This document shows, piece after piece, positions 36,270 through 53,086 of a stretch of DNA of 64,000 bases. Source of the stretch: Candidatus Anderseniibacteriota bacterium (GTDB lineage: Bacteria > Patescibacteriota > Andersenbacteria > UBA10190); assembly GCA_035288905.1 (NCBI GenBank), contig DATDYZ010000001.1:19172-83171 (forward strand), in the 5' to 3' direction. How positions within the stretch are numbered: position 1 is the stretch's first letter; every line of letters starts with the position of its first letter. A program made the position numbers and the translations under genes. The notes beneath the pieces were generated by a model. That model had not been told where the DNA came from, searched no databases, and saw only the letters and a list, made by a program, of their open reading frames with translations.

Positions 36270-36295
36270 TTATTCCAAGGCAAAGCCTTGGAATT
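36270..36295. repeat. REP-C palindrome TTCCAAGGCAAAGCCTTGGAA (inverted orientation relative to the two other copies)
   Basis: Perfect hairpin. Confidence 0.8.
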
Positions 36296-36322
36296 GCTTA
36301 TGAATTTGCTAGATATGCTAGA

Positions 36323-36961
36323 ATGATTGGGATTATATCTATGAACTGTAACGAATATCACATAATCGGAATGAGTCCTGGTAATAGCTATTTTAAGGAT
36401 GAAGAAATTCTTTACCTGCTCAAAACTACAATTGATCGTTTTGGTAAGGTAGCTATTTTAATTGCGGATATTCCTGCAATATCTACATACATAGCTTTGG
36501 GGTATCCAGAAAATCGAGCACGGCGTGATAAGGCCATACCAAAAGGCAATGCGTTAAAAAATCGCGTACGAAAAATAATGGCCAAGCTTGGTTATTCTGA
36601 GGATATTGTCAGAATTATTGATTGGGAACATGAAGTAGAAAATAATTCCGAGTATCAGAAAAGCTATCAAAATGTACTTGAATTATACAAGCAGAATCGA
36701 GCGTTTCATAGCGCTGCAGATACTACTACCTACTTAGTGCTTGAAAGCTCAAAAAAGGATTTTGATGACATTGAACTCGCCACTGGTATTGCGGTTCATT
36801 ATCTTTTATCAGAGTTTGCTTTTTTGGAGTTTGCGCCGAGCTTTTTGGAAGCAACAAAAGTTATTTATGTTTATCATAAAAACTGGCAAGTATACGAAGA
36901 TTATATCGCAGGTAAATTTGATCATGTCGTACGTCCAAATTTAGGTTTTCTATTACTATAG
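36323..36961 (+). CDS. Cyclodipeptide synthase (CDPS, AlbC/YvmC family)-like protein
   Basis: HIIGMSPGNSYF aligns with the AlbC HALIGISAGNSYF region (catalytic Ser). TYLVLE gives a Y..x3..E pair, and a later VYHKN gives a YH. Length (212 aa) is in the CDPS range. Confidence 0.55.
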   Translation: MIGIISMNCNEYHIIGMSPGNSYFKDEEILYLLKTTIDRFGKVAILIADIPAISTYIALGYPENRARRDKAIPKGNALKNRVRKIMAKLGYSEDIVRIIDWEHEVENNSEYQKSYQNVLELYKQNRAFHSAADTTTYLVLESSKKDFDDIELATGIAVHYLLSEFAFLEFAPSFLEATKVIYVYHKNWQVYEDYIAGKFDHVVRPNLGFLLL

Positions 36962-36980
36962 AATCCCTATGAAACGTAAG

Positions 36981-37010
36981 CTTATTCCAAGGCTTTGCCT
37001 TGGAATATAG
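36981..37010. repeat. REP-C palindrome TTCCAAGGCTTTGCCTTGGAA
   Basis: Perfect hairpin. Confidence 0.8.
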
Positions 37011-37035
37011 TCTATTTTGCGTATAATTACATTAT

Positions 37036-37701
37036 ATGAGTTATCGGCATGTGGGCTTTGCACCAGGTGAGATATATCACATATTCACTCGTGGCGTTGA
37101 GAAAAGAAAGATCTTTCTCTATGATGCTGATCGAATCCGTTTTCTTTCGCTCCTTGTGCATTGTTTACCACAAGGTCCAATCCAAAGTTTTTCTGTCGCG
37201 CAAAAACTCAAGCGAAAAACTGAGATTACCGCTTCTGGCGAAGGGCTAGTAGATATTCTCTGTTACTGCCTTATGAATAATCATATTCACCTGCTCCTGA
37301 AAGAAAATGTCGAAAAAGGTATTTCTATATACATGCAACGACTGCTCACTAGCTACGCTATGTATTTTAACAGAAGATCTGAGCGTTCAGGATCCTTATT
37401 TGTAAATCCGTTTAAGGCGGTTGTAGTTGATGCTGACGATCAATTCCTGCACGTCACTCGATATATTCATCTAAATCCGTTTGTTGCGCATCTGGTTGAA
37501 GACCCCTTTGGATATATTTGGTCTTCTTTACATGAATACACAGCTGCTTCACAAGAAAGTAAAATTTGTCACCCTGAATTACTCCGAGGAATAATGGGAC
37601 AACAGGAGTATCACCGTTTTGTGCTAGATCATGCCGACTATTCGCAGTCGCTTGTAGATAATTATCACCTTCTTATCGACATTGATGAAGAAGTGTCATA
37701 A
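37036..37701 (+). CDS. IS200/IS605-like HuH Y1 transposase (REP-associated tyrosine transposase, RAYT-like)
   Basis: HuH motif NNHIHLLL and the conserved tyrosine region TRYIHLNP. Flanked by REP-C copies. Confidence 0.8.
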   Translation: MSYRHVGFAPGEIYHIFTRGVEKRKIFLYDADRIRFLSLLVHCLPQGPIQSFSVAQKLKRKTEITASGEGLVDILCYCLMNNHIHLLLKENVEKGISIYMQRLLTSYAMYFNRRSERSGSLFVNPFKAVVVDADDQFLHVTRYIHLNPFVAHLVEDPFGYIWSSLHEYTAASQESKICHPELLRGIMGQQEYHRFVLDHADYSQSLVDNYHLLIDIDEEVS

Positions 37702-37705
37702 AGGC

Positions 37706-37735
37706 GTTATTCCAAGGCTTTGCCTTGGAATGCGT
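37706..37735. repeat. REP-C palindrome copy
   Basis: TTCCAAGGCTTTGCCTTGGAA. Confidence 0.8.
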
Positions 37736-40758: not shown

Positions 40759-42371
40759 TGTTGAAATACCCTGCAAACGGATCCATTATATCGGCGGCGC
40801 TCATTCTAGGCGCCTCTTCTCTTGTGAGTAGAATAATTGGGCTCCTGCGAGATAGAACATTTACTACGTTATTTGGAGCGGGAGATACGTTTGATGCGTT
40901 TATTGCCGCCTTTAGAATTCCCGATTTGATTTTTAATCTTATTGTTATAGGCGCTCTTTCTGCAGCGTTTATCCCGATGTTTACGGAAAAGATGGTGGCA
41001 GGAAAAGACGGAAAAAAAGAAGCGTATCGATTTGCGCTTTCTGTTTTAAATGTCATGTGTTTTGGAGTGAGTGTGTTAAGCTTGATATATATTACGTTTG
41101 CACCAGCTATTGTTTCTTTAATTACCCCAGGGTTTTCAGGGGAAAAACTTTCGTTAACAATTGAACTTTCGCGTATTATGGCGCTTCAGCCATTACTTCT
41201 TTCTGTGAGTTTTGTTTTTTCTGGAATTTTGAATTCGTACAAGCGCTTTGTGGCGTATGCGTTTGCTCCTATTGTATATAATCTTGGTATTATTGCAGGG
41301 GCAATATATTTTGTGCCGTACATCGGCATACGGGGACTGGCATGGGGAGTTGTATTTGGCGCACTATTGCATGTGCTCATACAAGTACCGAGCGTACTTC
41401 GCGTGGGATTTCGCTGGGATATTATTTTGTTTTCGTCTTTTGCTGATTGGAAAAAGCTATGGAGTATGATGCTCCCGCGCGTATTTGGTCTTGCCGCTCA
41501 GCAGACTAATTTGCTTATTGTAACTATTTTGGGTTCGGGGTTTTTATCTGGCAGTATTTCTGCATTTCACCTTGCAAACAATGCACAATATATTCCCGTT
41601 GGAATTTTTGGGATTGCGTTTGCGCAAGCTGCGTTCCCTACACTTTCTGAGCAGATTGCTCGCAAACAGAAGAGAGCGTTTCGCCATACGCTCACCAAAT
41701 CATTTCGATATATTATGTTTCTTGTTGTGCCAATATCTGTTCTGTTTTATCTCCTTCGTGCGCAAATTATTCGTGTGCTTTTTGGAGACGGGGCATTTAG
41801 TTGGGACGATACAACAATTACATACGATACATTTGGTTTTTTAGTTGTGAGTATTTTTGCTCAGGCAACTATTCCATTACTTACCCGTGCATTTTATGCA
41901 AAACAAAATACAAAAACACCCGTTATTGTTTCTCTTATTAGTATTGTGTTAAACATAGCTCTTGCACTCGCACTCTCGGAGCGCTTCGGGGTGCAAGGAC
42001 TCGCAATTGCGTTTTCTGTTTCCGCAATTGTTCAACTCGCGCTCTTGCTCGGAGTGCTCCACTGGCAGCTGGATGGATTTGATGACAAGGTTGTTTTAAA
42101 AAGTACATGCAAAGTAGTTATAGCAACTCTCGCAGCTGCAATTGTGGCACAGGCGTTGAAAACACCAATCGCATATATGGTCGATATGCAGCGGTTTTGG
42201 GGTATTGCCACACAATTAATTGGAGTGTTTACTGGTGGAATGATAATGTATATCTTTGTTTGTATGATACTTAAGAGTGAGGAGCTAGAAATCATCAAGA
42301 AATATATTCCTCGCAAATTGAAATTCACCGCAGGCTCAGACACCCCGCGCTTTTCAGGGTTTATGGAATGA
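40758..42371 (+). CDS. murJ: Lipid II flippase MurJ (MviN)
   Basis: N-terminal LLRDR..T..FGAG...DAF..AFRIPD signature and 14 TM helices. Confidence 0.87.
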   Translation: MLKYPANGSIISAALILGASSLVSRIIGLLRDRTFTTLFGAGDTFDAFIAAFRIPDLIFNLIVIGALSAAFIPMFTEKMVAGKDGKKEAYRFALSVLNVMCFGVSVLSLIYITFAPAIVSLITPGFSGEKLSLTIELSRIMALQPLLLSVSFVFSGILNSYKRFVAYAFAPIVYNLGIIAGAIYFVPYIGIRGLAWGVVFGALLHVLIQVPSVLRVGFRWDIILFSSFADWKKLWSMMLPRVFGLAAQQTNLLIVTILGSGFLSGSISAFHLANNAQYIPVGIFGIAFAQAAFPTLSEQIARKQKRAFRHTLTKSFRYIMFLVVPISVLFYLLRAQIIRVLFGDGAFSWDDTTITYDTFGFLVVSIFAQATIPLLTRAFYAKQNTKTPVIVSLISIVLNIALALALSERFGVQGLAIAFSVSAIVQLALLLGVLHWQLDGFDDKVVLKSTCKVVIATLAAAIVAQALKTPIAYMVDMQRFWGIATQLIGVFTGGMIMYIFVCMILKSEELEIIKKYIPRKLKFTAGSDTPRFSGFME

Positions 42372-43804
42372 AGTACGCGTTCAAGAAAAGTGGTTCGATA
42401 TTCTTACTTGGAGTTTGCCTCTTTCTTTTTACTATTCTACTTTGGCCGCTTCGGTATTCTACATCAGACACCGAGCAGCTGTCTGACCCGGTTGGCTCAA
42501 TTTCTGTTACTCCGGACAAGCCAGTCGTGAATGTACAAATTTACCCTTCTCGTTCATTGGTTGGGGTTTCTTTCTGGACCGCAGAAAAGCAAAAAGTTCA
42601 AGGTGATACTCTCTTGGAACTGGTAATAACTAATTCAAACACAGGAGAGGTAGCTATATCTCGCGAGATGCAGTTTTCTCACGTGTTCCAAAAGAAAAAA
42701 AACATGATCATGTTTACATTTCCATCGATACGTAGTTCTCCATATCTCGTCTCGCTACGAATACCAGATGCGTCCGCAGGGCAATCTCTTACGCTTCGGG
42801 GGCCACTCAAGATTATTGATGATAAAACGAGCGCGCAGACTGTTGTTCAAGTGCTTGAAAAGCGTTCGCTCTATTCTATATTTTATACACATTTATTCAG
42901 CGCTACCGCCGAGGGGGAAGATATTTACTATTATTGGTTGAGAGGAGGGGAAATTGTAAAAGGGGAAAACCCATATGTATGCTCTTTGGACGATACGTGT
43001 ATAAATCATAAGAACCCAGGGCACTTCCCAGTATTTTACTGGTTGTCAGCCTTATCGCAACAGGCAGGATTCCATGACTTTCATGATTGGATTGTGTTTT
43101 GGCGAACGATATTTTTATTGTGCTATTTAGCAACTGGTGCTGTGCTATTTTGGACGCTTTATAAGCGCAAACAATATGAGCTGGCTGTTTTTGCGTTATT
43201 CTTTTGGTTATTTAATAGATGGTCACTATATGTAATTCGTGTTGCGCATGTAGATTTTGTGGCTATATTTTTCTTGACTGCTTCGTTGGTGCTATTTGAG
43301 AAGAAGCGCTTTTTATCTTTATTGGCATTTGGAGTTTCTTTGGGAATTAAACAGGTTGCCATCTTTTTAGTACCTTTGTATATTATTTTTATTTGGGTGC
43401 AAGCGGAAAAAGGCAAACGAGTTACAGCAACTCTCAAGGGTATTCTAGTCATGGCAATTGTTCCGCTTATTTCCTTAATCCCGTTTGTAATTGATAGCCC
43501 CAAAAGTGTGGCAACGGGACTTTTGTTTTCTGCTACTCGAAATTCGCAGGCCAATATTGGGGCAGCACCTCTGGTGTCGCTTCTGAAGATTGATGGTGCT
43601 ATAGGGGTCGCTCCGATGGTATTCCTAATGCTACTTGTATTCATGGCTGCATACAGAAAAAAGCTTTCTCTCGCTATGAGTGGGCTTGCTATTATGCTGA
43701 CATTTATTGCGTTTAATACGGTTTTGTTTAACCAATATTTCCTATGGTTTGTACCGTTTCTGCCACTCGCCGCGTCGGAAATAAAAAAAGTACGGTTGCA
43801 GTAA
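42368..43804 (+). CDS. Polytopic membrane protein with a large extracytoplasmic N-terminal domain (possible GT-C-like glycosyltransferase)
   Basis: N-terminal TM, a soluble domain of about 200 aa, then a C-terminal region of about 8 TM. I have no firm family assignment. Confidence 0.45.
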   Translation: MKYAFKKSGSIFLLGVCLFLFTILLWPLRYSTSDTEQLSDPVGSISVTPDKPVVNVQIYPSRSLVGVSFWTAEKQKVQGDTLLELVITNSNTGEVAISREMQFSHVFQKKKNMIMFTFPSIRSSPYLVSLRIPDASAGQSLTLRGPLKIIDDKTSAQTVVQVLEKRSLYSIFYTHLFSATAEGEDIYYYWLRGGEIVKGENPYVCSLDDTCINHKNPGHFPVFYWLSALSQQAGFHDFHDWIVFWRTIFLLCYLATGAVLFWTLYKRKQYELAVFALFFWLFNRWSLYVIRVAHVDFVAIFFLTASLVLFEKKRFLSLLAFGVSLGIKQVAIFLVPLYIIFIWVQAEKGKRVTATLKGILVMAIVPLISLIPFVIDSPKSVATGLLFSATRNSQANIGAAPLVSLLKIDGAIGVAPMVFLMLLVFMAAYRKKLSLAMSGLAIMLTFIAFNTVLFNQYFLWFVPFLPLAASEIKKVRLQ

Positions 43805-43814
43805 GCTAAAAACA

Positions 43815-43847
43815 GGAATCATTCCGACACCTGGTGTCGGAATCTTG
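43815..43847. repeat. REP-D palindrome TTCCGACACCTGGTGTCGGAA
   Basis: Perfect hairpin. Confidence 0.8.
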
Positions 43848-43863
43848 TGATAGAATATTTACT

Positions 43864-44523
43864 ATGGGGTATCGAATAAATGGGTTTGAGCGGGGCGGTG
43901 TATACCACATATTTACGCGCGGTGTGGAGAAGAGGGAAATTTTTATGGATCATTCCGATCGTGTACGGTTTATCTCGCAAATGATTCATTGCTTGCCCGA
44001 TGAGCCTATTCTGAATTTTTCGCATGCACAAAAACTAAAACGAAAGTTGATAATAACCAGCGAAGGGGAGGGGTTAGCGGATATTCTTTGTTATTGCTTA
44101 ATGAATAATCATGTTCATTTTTTGCTCCGAGAAAATGTTGATGGTGGTATTTCGCGCTATATGCAACGGCTGCTCAATAGCTTCGCTCGGTATTTTAATG
44201 TTAAATACGAGCGCACTGGGGCGTTATTTGCGGGTCCGTTTCGGTCTGTTCCTGTGGTAAGTGATGATCAGCTTTTGCACGTAAGTAGGTATATTCATCT
44301 TAATCCTCATGCTGCGCATATAGTAAAGGATGTCTTCGCATATCCCTGGTCCTCGTTACGTGCATACTTAAACGACGAAGATTCGAAACTTTATTGCCAC
44401 GCTGACTTTCTTGCGTCATTAATGGATAAAAAAGAATATAAAAAATTCGTTTTCGATCAAGTGAGTTACGAACAATCCTTAGCTGCTTTTCCTGAACTTC
44501 TTTTAGATGATGACTATACTTAA
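43864..44523 (+). CDS. HuH Y1 transposase (RAYT-like), second paralog
   Basis: VYHIFTRGVEKREIF, NNHVHFLL and SRYIHLNPH. Trimmed from track ORF 43834, which starts in the REP. Confidence 0.8.
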   Translation: MGYRINGFERGGVYHIFTRGVEKREIFMDHSDRVRFISQMIHCLPDEPILNFSHAQKLKRKLIITSEGEGLADILCYCLMNNHVHFLLRENVDGGISRYMQRLLNSFARYFNVKYERTGALFAGPFRSVPVVSDDQLLHVSRYIHLNPHAAHIVKDVFAYPWSSLRAYLNDEDSKLYCHADFLASLMDKKEYKKFVFDQVSYEQSLAAFPELLLDDDYT

Positions 44524-44570
44524 TTCCGACACCTGGTGTCGGAATAAGTTCCCTGGTGTCGGAATAAGTT
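44521..44570. repeat. REP-D palindrome plus tandem half-copy
   Basis: TTCCGACACCTGGTGTCGGAATAAGTTCCCTGGTGTCGGAATAAGTT. Confidence 0.75.
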
Positions 44571-44572
44571 CT

Positions 44573-44865
44573 TTTCTGGCCCGTTTCGTGCTGTAGCTGT
44601 TGTACGTGATGAGCAATTTCTTCACGTAAGTAGGTATATTCACTTGAATCCATATGCGGCCCATATGACAAAGGATCCGCTTACATATAAATGGTCTTCT
44701 CTTGGCGAGTACTTTTTAGATGAAAGCAATAAAACAGCTTCTTGCCACACGAACTTTCTATTATCGTTAATAAGCTCTAAAGAATACAGAAGTTTTGTTG
44801 CAGACTACGCAGAGTATGCTCAGTCTCTCGCAAGCTACCCAGAATTGCTTATAGACGATGAATAA
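44573..44865 (+). pseudogene. C-terminal fragment of a third RAYT paralog (lacks the HuH N-terminal half)
   Basis: It translates to FSGPFRAVAVVRDEQFLHVSRYIHLNPYAAHM..., which parallels residues about 125-229 of the upstream transposase. There is no N-terminal domain. Confidence 0.65.
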
Positions 44866-44870
44866 TTTGT

Positions 44871-44893
44871 ATTCCAACACCTGGTGTTGGAAT
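44871..44893. repeat. REP-D variant TTCCAACACCTGGTGTTGGAA
   Basis: Hairpin. Confidence 0.75.
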
Positions 44894-44935
44894 GAGGATT
44901 TGTTTCGTTTGAATAAAATCTGATACTATTTACTT

Positions 44936-45685
44936 GTGAATGAATTATTAGGAAAGTTGGAAATTGATGATGCCTTCGGTCAAGAAGTTTGGGATCATTT
45001 TAAGGGTGAGCGACACTTTGAGATTGTTGAGCGAGATGATGGATTTATTGATGCTGGTAGTTTTGGTGGGCTAGTTTATTTTGCGAAATTCGATGATTGG
45101 GAAAATATAGATAAAGAAGCAATAAAATATGCGAAGGGCAAAACCTTAGATATAGGATGTGGTGCTGGTCGTCATGCTCTATATCTTCAAAATAAAAAAT
45201 TTGACGTAACAGGTATTGATAACTCGCCATTGGCAATTAAAGTTTGTAAAGAGCGTGGACTAGAAAAAGCATTTGTATTGCCCATAGTCGAAGTTGAGAC
45301 ACTTCTGCCAGAAAAATTTGATAGTATATTACTGCTCGGTCATAACTTCGGTTTATTTGGAAGTTTTCAAGAGGCTCGATCATTGCTCGCTAAAATAGGG
45401 AATGTAACAAATCCTGGTGCAATTATTATTTCTACTACTCGGGATCCATATCAAAGCACTGAGGCAGTTCATGAAGAATATCAACAAAAGAATCTAGCAG
45501 AAGGGCGCATGGGCGGACAACTTAGACTTCGTATTCGCCACAAAAAATTAATAGGTTCTTGGTTTAATTATCTTTTTGTGTCCAAAGAAGAGCTTAAACA
45601 TATTGTGGAAGGTTCTGGTTGGAAAGTTAAAGAATTTATTGGTAATGAAGAGCCAGAATACGGTGTTATTTTGGAAAAGGAGTGA
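44936..45685 (+). CDS. Class I SAM-dependent methyltransferase
   Basis: Motif I LDIGCGAGRHALYL and motif post-I DVTGIDNS. Confidence 0.75.
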   Translation: MNELLGKLEIDDAFGQEVWDHFKGERHFEIVERDDGFIDAGSFGGLVYFAKFDDWENIDKEAIKYAKGKTLDIGCGAGRHALYLQNKKFDVTGIDNSPLAIKVCKERGLEKAFVLPIVEVETLLPEKFDSILLLGHNFGLFGSFQEARSLLAKIGNVTNPGAIIISTTRDPYQSTEAVHEEYQQKNLAEGRMGGQLRLRIRHKKLIGSWFNYLFVSKEELKHIVEGSGWKVKEFIGNEEPEYGVILEKE

Positions 45686-45727: not shown

Positions 45728-45750
45728 ATTCTAACACCAGGTGTTAGAAT
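45728..45750. repeat. REP-D variant TTCTAACACCAGGTGTTAGAA
   Basis: Hairpin. Confidence 0.7.
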
Positions 45751-46079
45751 GGATAGTGGTTTGTACCGTTTCTCCCGCTTGCGCTATCGGAATTTTCCAA
45801 AAAACGTGGTATGCTCAATGTATGAAAAAGAAACATCAAAATGGTGACACTCCAGCTACACAGCACGATCTTGAGATACTTGGTGGACATTTGTCTTCAA
45901 GAATTGATGACGTAGAGGCAAGTATTTCTAGTCTTAGGTATGTAGTAGAATCTATTTTAAGCGTTGTACAATCAATTGAAGGAAGGTTTCAAGAAACTAA
46001 GGGAGATCATGAACGAGTTGAAAGGCACGAAGAACGCATCACGGCGGTTGAGGTTCAAGTGAGAATGCTCCAGAAATAA
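45741..46079 (+). CDS. Hypothetical small coiled-coil protein
   Basis: The ORF's listed start lies inside the REP, so the real start may be the later MKKKHQ (about 45819). I recognise no family. Confidence 0.35.
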   Translation: MLEWIVVCTVSPACAIGIFQKTWYAQCMKKKHQNGDTPATQHDLEILGGHLSSRIDDVEASISSLRYVVESILSVVQSIEGRFQETKGDHERVERHEERITAVEVQVRMLQK

Positions 46080-52454: not shown

Positions 52455-53063
52455 TTGAGAGAAAATGAAAGCATGATTACAAAACTCATGGTGTTAGACC
52501 GCGACGGATTGCTCAACGTAGACGTTGGGTATACCTACAAAGTGGAAGATTTGAAACTTGCCCCAGGCGTTATTGAAGGCCTTACGCTTCTCAAGAGTCT
52601 TGGGTTTCGGTTTGCCATTGCAACCGGCCAGTCTGGAATTGGGAAGGGTAAGTACACCGAAGCAGACATGGACGCGTTCAATATCGCATTGCTTGCCGAG
52701 CTTGCAAAAAGCGACATTCAGGTCGACGCCGTTGCATTTTGCCCACACGACAAGGGCGAAGGGTGCAAGTGCAGGAAGCCGGGAGTTGGTATGCTTGAGC
52801 AAATTGAAGCAAAGCTTGGTCCGATCGACTGGTCAAAAGCATGGGGAAGTGGCGACAAGCCTGCAGACTCAAAGATGATTCTCGCGATGGGAGGTTCTGC
52901 GGTTCTGGTAGAAAGCGGACCACACAATAACTCGGCTGGGAAAGCGTACTGGGATGAAGAACCAGAACTTCTGAAAGAAGTCATGGGAAACCCAAGAAAC
53001 TTCGTGGCGCACGATCTTGGCGCAGCTGCGTTGGTTATTCAACAGCAGTTGGCAGCATCGTAA
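52455..53063 (+). CDS. HAD-IIIA phosphatase, GmhB-like (D,D-heptose 1,7-bisphosphate phosphatase family), second copy
   Basis: VLDRDGLLN and the zinc motif CPHDKGEGCKCRKP. Confidence 0.78.
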   Translation: MRENESMITKLMVLDRDGLLNVDVGYTYKVEDLKLAPGVIEGLTLLKSLGFRFAIATGQSGIGKGKYTEADMDAFNIALLAELAKSDIQVDAVAFCPHDKGEGCKCRKPGVGMLEQIEAKLGPIDWSKAWGSGDKPADSKMILAMGGSAVLVESGPHNNSAGKAYWDEEPELLKEVMGNPRNFVAHDLGAAALVIQQQLAAS

Positions 53064-53086
53064 TTCCAACACCAGTTGTTGGAAAA
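53061..53086. repeat. Degenerate REP-D-like palindrome TTCCAACACCAGTTGTTGGAA
   Basis: Hairpin. Confidence 0.55.

Follow-up and report, generated by a model that had tools for sequence, protein, structure and literature searches.

An apparent RAYT/REP-like locus with a truncated third paralog beside lepA in a Candidatus Andersenbacteria genome

The transposase genes and their palindromes

The stretch of DNA analyzed here (herein the window) spans 64 kb of a contig (DATDYZ010000001.1, assembly GCA_035288905.1) from a small groundwater bacterium of Candidatus Andersenbacteria, represented by a small-genome metagenome-assembled genome (MAG). It contains two genes for HUH-Y1 transposases, herein RAYT-1 and RAYT-2, each bracketed by its own short palindromes of the repetitive extragenic palindromic (REP) kind, REP-C and REP-D, respectively; RAYT-2 is followed by a half-REP, by the C-terminal remnant of a third paralog and by a methyltransferase gene, and the whole lies shortly upstream of lepA. 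The features are collected in Table 1. All coordinates are positions within the window, and labels of the form L0xx denote related loci or metagenome contigs. Rfam and tRNA scans of the window returned only RNase P (30426 through 30780), no tRNA, and nothing at the locus.

Table 1. Coordinates of the RAYT-2 locus, the first block and related features in the window
Feature	Position	Strand	Remarks
First block	36272..37731	+	REP-C 36272-36294, cyclodipeptide synthase 36323..36961, REP-C 36983-37007, RAYT-1 37036..37701, REP-C 37709-37731
ALG3-like glycosyltransferase gene, 3' end	43745..43804	+	gene 42368..43804; encodes WFVPFLPLAASE...; copy 1 of the imperfect direct repeat bracketing the block
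REP-D	43821..43843	.	23-nt perfect palindrome, 20 nt upstream of RAYT-2 start; DNA fold -10.2 kcal/mol, z = -3.7
RAYT-2	43864..44523	+	ATG 43864, TAA 44521-44523; 219-residue HUH-Y1 enzyme
REP-D, second exact copy	44523..44545	.	overlaps the end of the RAYT-2 stop codon by one base
Exact 20-bp tandem duplication, 2 x CCTGGTGTCGGAATAAGTTC	44532..44571	+	units 44532-44551 and 44552-44571; REP positions 10-23 plus 6 nt of flank
Third-paralog remnant	44569..44865	+	C-terminal 98 codons plus stop; tblastn 44569..44862 to RAYT-2 residues 121-217
REP-D' ATTCCAACACCTGGTGTTGGAAT	44871..44893	.	compensated G:C to A:T variant (CCAACACC/GGTGTTGG), 5 nt past the remnant stop
Class I S-adenosylmethionine-dependent methyltransferase	44936..45685	+	Pfam Methyltransf_31/25/11; between REP-D' and REP-D''; no counterpart in L094, L095
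REP-D'' ATTCTAACACCAGGTGTTAGAAT	45728..45750	.	arms CTAACACC/GGTGTTAG; two compensated pairs, flipped central base; right edge of block
Orphan glycosyltransferase 3'-end remnant	45757..45825	+	would encode WFVPFLPLALSEFSKK...; copy 2 of the direct repeat, then lepA promoter-like AAAACGTGGTAT copy
Degenerate solo REP-D' ATTCCAACACCAGTTGTTGGAAA	53063..53085	.	one stem mismatch; abuts the stop of open reading frame 52455..53063; DNA fold -7.0 kcal/mol, z = -3.6

An earlier note on this DNA, made from the sequence by eye, had placed a second HUH-Y1 transposase at the position of RAYT-2 and judged it about 55% similar to the first; the gene is present, and its measured identity to RAYT-1 (221 residues; tblastn alignment 37036 through 37686) is 58%. 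A tblastn search of the window with RAYT-2 finds three places only (RAYT-2 itself, RAYT-1 and the remnant), and the aligned copies share 46 to 59% identity. RAYT-2 has the HUH motif NNHVH (H83/H85) and the tyrosine motif RYIHLNP (Y143). An alignment of 29 family members shows no exception at H83, H85, R142 and Y143; F122 is likewise invariant in the family and is followed by Q in several homologs. The form YIHLNP, common to RAYT-1, RAYT-2 and the remnant, is that of class 2 (Y---NP) and not that of IS200 (Y---Q). Both full-length proteins match Pfam PF01797 Y1_Tnp (RAYT-2, 32.0 bits; RAYT-1, 31.9 bits; cutoff 23). GenBank holds the exact proteins under a Candidatus Andersenbacteria MAG (HLC48815.1 and HLC48820.1), the latter, RAYT-2, labeled "transposase" by NCBI.

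A single-sequence phmmer search of the PDB gave no meaningful match and a family profile only marginal ones (ISDra2, E = 0.09; 4ER8, E = 0.9), so that structure prediction was needed. The top PDB match found by Foldseek for the AlphaFold model of RAYT-2 (predicted local distance difference test, 87.4) is 4ER8_A (E = 5e-7; TM-score 0.67, normalized to target length), the structure of Escherichia coli TnpA_REP with a bound REP hairpin (PMC3479197); the IS608 and ISDra2 structures 2A6M, 2VJV and 2XM3 match more weakly (E ~1e-3). The proteins here have a helical C-terminal extension of ~70 residues, and this tail shows no helix-turn-helix or DnaA_C match in Pfam. By their motifs, RAYT-1 and RAYT-2 are class-2 HUH-Y1 enzymes, and the predicted fold of RAYT-2 is like that of TnpA_REP.

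REP-D is a 23-nt perfect palindrome, ATTCCGACACCTGGTGTCGGAAT, in which the arms GACACC and GGTGTC enclose a central T and stand on a foot of ATTCC...GGAAT. Exact copies lie on both sides of RAYT-2; the core TTCCGACACCTGGTGTCGGAA recurs exactly at 43822 through 43842 and 44524 through 44544, with 0 matches in 100 dinucleotide shuffles. REP-C (ATTCCAAGGCTTTGCCTTGGAAT; at 36272, 36983 and 37709) surrounds RAYT-1 and the cyclodipeptide synthase gene next to it, the third copy being the one on the far side of the latter. It is likewise a perfect palindrome and has the same foot. RAYT-2 is thus flanked by a REP different from that of RAYT-1, as the earlier note had it. Folded as single-stranded DNA, the REP elements reach z-scores of -3.6 to -5.7. 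The central base on the plus strand is the same in both flanking copies here, unlike in the classical case; the loops are inverted in L085 and L093. GGGGWSAS-type terminal inverted repeats were found beside neither RAYT-1 nor RAYT-2.

Compensated variants of REP-D occupy each intergenic gap after RAYT-2. They differ at stem pairs 5:19 and 6:18, mostly on both sides; the variable pairs include C:G, T:A, A:T and G:C, and G:T or A:C intermediates occur in related contigs. Across 10 distinct sequences, a small sample, 94.5% of cells are paired, versus 28 to 44% with a slid partner, and the covariation score is matched by 1 of 500 shuffles. The claim of three more REP-D variants within 900 bp was slightly generous: the copy at 44523, the half copy and two variants extend over ~1.2 kb. 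The degenerate copy reported ~8 kb away at 53061 was found at 53064 through 53084 with one stem mismatch, and no RAYT adjoins it.

Each RAYT has an extended -10-like box between its upstream REP and its start codon (TGATAGAAT and TGCGTATAAT; 43844 through 43866 and 37008 through 37038). Only 7 to 8 nt separate the box from the ATG, a hint of leaderless transcription. The variant REP GGTGTTAGAAT can itself be read as TGnTAGAAT. REPs as promoters were considered and rejected; a generic promoter scan was not enriched (5 found vs. 7.2 +/- 2.6 expected).

Relatives, genomic context and interpretation

A protein search with the transposases returned at least 797 clusters at 90% identity, the relatives being ~215 to 220 residues long and mostly unnamed or called "transposase"; the named members are from Candidatus Andersenbacteria or Patescibacteria. 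A scan of GTDB species-representative genomes gave at least 555 family loci, among which the genome of the window does not appear; 80 of the loci were kept for flank analysis. In ~50 of these 80, a word of at least 12 nt, often a visible palindrome, occurs in both 120-nt flanks. Perfect hairpins of at least 7 pairs occur on both sides at 23 of the 77 loci with flanks long enough for counting, mostly around Patescibacterial members of ~200 to 230 residues. The upstream hairpin is found ~10 to 60 nt ahead of the start codon, the downstream one at the stop codon or just past it, and many have CAAGG...CCTTG stems similar to REP-C. Longer relatives from Firmicutes (L055, L057, L060 and L082) and other groups have inverted flank words with GTCCCC/GACCCC, which resemble the TIRYT motif GGGGWSAS by eye rather than by a score against the consensus.

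Palindrome and protein appear to be linked within this family. The RAYT-2 ortholog in L085 (70% amino acid identity) is accompanied by a REP-D stem identical at 22 of 22 positions; more distant relatives have the CCAACACC variant palindrome (L086, 66%) and ATTCAAACACCTGGTGTTTGAAT (L005, 52%). For RAYT-1, the ortholog in L093 (78%) is accompanied by a REP-C-like palindrome, ATTCCAAGG-CGTTT-CCTTGGAAT. These closest pairs give the clearer picture. A Mantel comparison of 45 loci shows a weak correlation between the identities of proteins and of hairpin arms (rho 0.13, equaled in 5 of 2000 permutations), and some correlation is expected for any linked sequence.

The best structural counterpart, E. 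coli TnpA_REP (RayT/YafM), binds single-stranded hairpins and cuts and rejoins DNA beside them (PMC3333891, PMC3479197). The proteins here share its HUH-Y1 fold, the Y...NP motif and the bracketing of the gene by cognate palindromes; they differ in sequence (~14% identity) and in their C-terminal extension. By motif inspection rather than with the authors' hidden Markov models, RAYT-1 and RAYT-2 look closest to TnpA_Y1 subclass 2.1 (PMC6006769), which is RAYT Group 1 (PMC5581495) and largely the TIRYT/TIRtron group (PMC3733652). The common traits are NNH[VI]H, YIHLNP, F(Q) instead of W, a WSS tail at 162 through 164, a length of 219 to 221 residues here against about 220 to 240 in the subclass, few and diverged copies per genome, and flanking repeats that are infrequent in the genome and in part self-complementary. 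For the subclass, Table 1 of PMC6006769 lists NH[VYF]H, Y[IV]HLNP or YIELNP, W[EQ]/FQ, a tail motif with serine and a length of ~238 residues. Quentin et al. (2018) reported no REP-like hairpins near subclass 2.1 genes in a survey of complete genomes that does not mention the candidate phyla radiation (CPR) (PMC6006769), whereas tight perfect hairpins on both sides are common in the Patescibacterial clade; Di Nocera (2013) described some TIRYTs with self-complementary, moderately repeated flanking repeats (PMC3733652).

Two such systems are indeed present in one small genome, as the earlier note had stressed, but several pairs per genome were already known: Pseudomonas fluorescens SBW25 and Stenotrophomonas maltophilia have several diverged RAYTs, each with its own palindrome family (PMC6006769, PMC5581495). 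Those genomes measure 5 to 7 Mb and hold tens to hundreds of REPINs per family, whereas the loci here lie 7 kb apart in a small-genome MAG and the window contains no REPIN doublets. A literature search linking CPR or Patescibacteria with RAYT or REP found no paper in an incomplete library.

Both RAYT genes lie in blocks that interrupt a conserved order of cell-envelope genes. In L094 and L095 (LepA 92%) the order is GT4, GT4, (HD), DUF4012, MurJ, ALG3-like glycosyltransferase (GT), lepA and rfbC; the GT gene abuts lepA, and there is no RAYT, cyclodipeptide synthase, methyltransferase or small coiled-coil open reading frame (ORF). The first block, missing between the GT4 and HD genes in both contigs, begins with a REP-C 4 nt past the GT4 stop (36272), and the HD-upstream sequence common to L095 resumes 24 nt after the last REP-C. 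The second block runs from REP-D at 43821 to REP-D'' at 45750 and takes in RAYT-2, the remnant and the methyltransferase gene. A repeat search showed it to be bracketed by a direct repeat (43745 through 43780 vs. 45757 through 45792; 81% identical) that includes an exact 17-mer, expected ~6e-4 times in 4.7 kb on a uniform-model estimate; the orphan copy, directly after the block, corresponds to the last ~20 codons of the GT gene (WFVPFLPLALSE...). The lepA promoter-like motif AAAMCGTGGTAT is duplicated (45800 through 45817 and 46097 through 46114), and the ancestral GT end AAGATTGAAATAA persists at 46078 through 46090. Nested insertions appear to have duplicated the GT-lepA junction. On the simplest reading, the second block would have arrived with a diverged GT 3' end attached (illegitimate recombination with a relative, anchored by homology, is one possible route), and the recipient GT end would have been left as a remnant.

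In L085 (LepA 80%) the RAYT-2 ortholog lies directly upstream of lepA. The site near lepA may have been occupied early and vacated in L094 and L095, or it may be a favored target. Copies of the promoter-like AAAMCGTGGTAT bracket the coiled-coil ORF (45825 through 46079). The cyclodipeptide synthase gene (tRNA-dependent; Pfam CDPS, 101 bits), absent in close relatives and bracketed by REP-C, may be a passenger gene.

We consider the locus to be probably REPtron-like, one of a Patescibacterial clade whose enzymes are RAYT/TIRYT-like single-strand DNA endonucleases of the class-2 HUH-Y1 type. By analogy with E. coli TnpA_REP and IS608 TnpA, the palindromes would fold into hairpins on single-stranded DNA and be bound by the cognate enzyme, which would cut a few nucleotides outside the hairpin foot and rejoin the ends; such activity could spread and homogenize the palindromes, with occasional adjoining deletions or duplications. 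As a whole, the arrangement looks like a Patescibacterial RAYT/TIRYT REPtron in an accessory insertion beside lepA, with a third-paralog remnant truncated at a REP-adjacent breakpoint.

Several points weigh against this interpretation. Both proteins score below the cutoff of the NCBIfam equivalog NF047646 REP_Tyr_transpos (48.1 and 43.2 bits; cutoff 80). REP-C and REP-D are short perfect palindromes with neither the GT[AG]G tag nor the stem mismatch, both of which E. coli TnpA_REP requires (PMC3333891), and recognition must therefore differ. Copies are few: five full and one half REP-D and three REP-C in 64 kb, a handful next to the ~580 REP copies of E. coli K-12. The covariation comes from 10 distinct sequences and two variable pairs only, the blocks are missing in the closest relatives and present in a more distant one (which fits loss as well as gain), and the deletion mechanism at the remnant junction is read from position alone. 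The interpretation in the earlier note stands in part. Each gene is bracketed by its own palindrome family, and the similarities track each other in L085, in L093 and in the Mantel comparison; "RAYT/REP" in the strict sense (GTAG tag, imperfect stems, many copies, an equivalog score of 80 rather than 48) overstates the case.

The unit of REP, gene and REP could instead be an autonomous IS200-like insertion sequence (IS), with the truncated and diverged copies as debris of repeated transposition. We regard this as unlikely, although the layout has much of an IS: an HUH-Y1 core and hairpins at both gene ends in a ~725-bp unit, as in the IS200/IS605 elements IS608 and ISDra2, a partial copy, and blocks missing in the closest relatives. 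The RAYT-1 ortholog in L093 and the 66% RAYT-2 relative in L086 also lie in unrelated gene contexts, and Group 1/subclass 2.1 are the most IS-like RAYT groups (PMC5581495). Against this origin, the tyrosine motif is Y...NP rather than the IS200 Y...Q, the protein has 219 residues rather than ~150, and one and the same perfect palindrome forms the hairpin at either end, in place of distinct left and right ends. No TnpB-sized gene was found beside RAYT-1 or RAYT-2 by tblastn and in the ORF list. There are no near-identical copies, those in the window being 46 to 59% identical, and solo REPs lie away from any RAYT. The RAYT-2 ortholog occupies the same lepA-proximal site despite only 80% LepA identity (L085), and the family is rare in viral contigs (9 weak matches among 2.9 million).

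It is highly unlikely that the palindromes are ordinary transcription terminators or mRNA-stabilizing hairpins with an incidental transposase neighbor. They are intergenic, often abut stop codons (44523 and 53064), and two fit a loose terminator pattern; but most have no T-tract, and the terminator-like count does not exceed that of shuffled sequence (3 vs. 1.7 +/- 1.5 expected). Moreover, a copy lies upstream of the gene as well as downstream, the ortholog in L085 (LepA 80%) has the identical stem next to it, and the layout of hairpin, gene and hairpin recurs throughout the family with different hairpin sequences.

The third-paralog remnant and its junction

The earlier note had described a C-terminal fragment without the HUH motif at 44573 through 44865; the remnant is confirmed, and the only correction is the trivial one that this start lies one base out of frame (44569). 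The sequence is free of stops, in frame, and keeps SRYIHLNP and the family-invariant residues in its range (F, F, RYI, N, S and F). The N-terminal two-thirds, including the HUH motif, are missing, and no start codon precedes the tyrosine motif; on these grounds the remnant is probably non-functional. Its callable ORFs, of only 66 to 73 residues, begin after the tyrosine motif, and it has no Pfam match. A search for a full-length relative gave its own ORF and one weak 130-residue match, the word-indexed search being probably insensitive for a 98-residue query.

The fragment had been taken for a tandem partial duplication and a sign of recent recombination. It lies directly downstream of RAYT-2 in the same orientation and reading frame (44569 - 43864 = 705 = 3 x 235) and is closer to RAYT-2 (59% identity over residues 121 through 217) than to RAYT-1 (46%). 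A recent partial duplication of RAYT-2, or a product of homologous recombination, nevertheless has very little probability. The fragment and RAYT-2 are only ~71% identical in nucleotides along a 147-nt repeat pair, with saturated synonymous sites (proportions of nonsynonymous and synonymous differences, pN 0.27 and pS 0.73; dS ~2.9), the same saturation making dN/dS uninformative about present-day selection on the fragment. It is as diverged as RAYT-1 is from RAYT-2, which points to a separate, old lineage. RAYT-2 is complete with its own 3' REP, so that no chimeric gene was formed, and the junction lies at the foot of that REP, outside the homology between RAYTs; homologous recombination is therefore not the cause. 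Judged by its divergence, the remnant is an old, distinct paralog and not a recent duplicate.

Two other readings were rejected. Insertion of a RAYT-2 cassette into the third paralog would require the N-terminal half of a third RAYT, and tblastn found none in the window. For a read-through from RAYT-2 into the remnant the frames match, but two in-frame TAA stops intervene.

The junction falls within 6 nt of the foot of the downstream REP of RAYT-2 and shows no microhomology. The half-REP noticed there earlier is real and forms the second unit of the exact 20-bp tandem duplication. Extra half-REP arms beside REP-D occur at three loci, and similar arms are found at other palindromes in L031, L052 and L083 (periods 12 to 17). 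Downstream of the RAYT-2 ortholog in L085, 6 nt of flank and REP positions 1 through 14 are repeated with a period of 20, the mirror image of the event in the window; the arm upstream has a period of 14 to 15. In L087, a RAYT-free cluster from the same sample, REP positions 12 through 23 plus 6 nt recur with a period of 18. The outer breakpoint lies 6 nt past the foot in three of the four REP-D half-REP cases. These breakpoints and the lack of microhomology are suggestive of hairpin-directed cutting and joining, in analogy to the known enzymes, four cases being too few for a claim. On the REPtron-like interpretation, the 5' half of the third paralog would have been lost by breakage and joining at, or within 6 nt of, the REP foot, and the half-REP duplication would mark the junction.

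That the tandem structure is an artefact of assembly, a collapsed or chimeric repeat, has a negligible chance: 23-nt repeats can confuse assemblers and one contig ends inside the remnant (L004, Logan; at 44727), but that contig crosses the junction of REP and half-REP, contigs from three further assemblies (ENA ERZ27254767 and ERZ4903072, both MEGAHIT, and JGI 3300002502) span 43700 through 46100 without gaps at 99.9% identity (1 to 2 mismatches each), and copies ~70% identical in nucleotides are far too diverged to collapse. The assembly error that the earlier note had named as its refutation is thus countered by an identical gap-free structure in three independent assemblies used as a check, and four have contigs that encode the RAYT-2 protein without a change. 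The sole polymorphism within the remnant among the assemblies is at 44800, G to A in L002 and L003 (Val to Ile).

Wider bearing and further palindromes

To our knowledge, RAYT/REP systems have been studied almost entirely in large-genome Proteobacteria, and the surveys consulted, made on complete genomes, are silent on the CPR. The locus reveals a large Patescibacterial clade (at least 797 clusters and at least 555 loci) whose genes are often bracketed by short perfect hairpins, even though they resemble a subclass reported without REPs. These hairpins remain unchanged across substantial divergence, and the loci act as accessory insertions, with putative passenger genes next to them, in a streamlined genome. 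A practical gain is better annotation, the genes being now just "transposase" and the remnant being called as a 66- to 73-residue ORF. In CPR MAGs, repeats are known to break contigs. For biochemistry, RAYT-1/REP-C and RAYT-2/REP-D offer a compact pair of enzyme and hairpin specificities.

A bolder idea, which we think doubtful, is that the Patescibacterial Y1 enzymes and palindromes constitute an HUH-driven cassette system, in which palindromes with the ATTCC...GGAAT foot delimit movable segments with passenger genes. The passengers would be the cyclodipeptide synthase on the RAYT-1 side and the methyltransferase on the RAYT-2 side; cutting would occur ~6 nt outside the foot, and the 18- to 20-bp duplications of a half-palindrome plus 6 nt would be its footprints. 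If true, this would amount to an integron-like shuffling of accessory genes into conserved operons of very small genomes.

Palindromes of these families also occur apart from the two loci. A metagenome scan for REP-D returned six contigs and missed a known JGI contig bearing four copies. On another contig from the same sample, a RAYT-free cluster (L087, 3184 through 3476; L092, 2029 through 2321) has, in the space of 300 bp, REP-C, REP-D (together with the 18-bp half-REP duplication), TTCCAACGCTAAGCGTTGGAA and a palindrome of family B, a mosaic resembling the bacterial interspersed mosaic elements. The exact REP-D 23-mer is also found in two evidently unrelated metagenome contigs of high GC content (0.66 to 0.69; L088, 7528 through 7550, and L089, 1999 through 2021), where it forms the tip of much longer perfect palindromes; the L088 arms contain GGGGTCAG, which fits the TIRtron motif GGGGWSAS. 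These occurrences may reflect chance or a distant relationship.

Four family members (L024, 3740; L025, 4135; L039, 1122; L083, 4141; 34 to 42% identical) have their own flanking palindrome a third time, within the coding sequence and in frame (codons ~51 to 58), where it encodes LKLQG[RS]TLEE. RAYT-1 shows a faint remnant of such a palindrome (CCACAAGGTCC, "PQG"). Intragenic REPs had earlier been reported for subclass 2.4 only (PMC6006769).

The window as a whole is rich in palindromes, with about two dozen loci having stems of at least 8 pairs and at least four families (positions 356, 387, 13134, 15148, 15425, 18535, 28516, 29985, 47951, 61432, 63738 and 63822, for example). Several families have the common foot form AT[TCG]CC...GG[AGC]AT, and for two, CCCTCTCCCCAATTGGGGAGAGGG and ATCCCGGGCTTGACCCGGGAT, the window contains no RAYT. 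Within lepA (46127 through 47938), a hypervariable linker (..PSPPATAGPSPRTGEGSEN..) includes, in frame, a palindrome of a different family, CCCTCTCCCAGAACGGGAGAGGG (46685 through 46707); the same spot holds a different palindrome in L094, and most of the segment is missing in L095. A REP seems here to have been inserted, in frame, into the coding sequence of a housekeeping gene.

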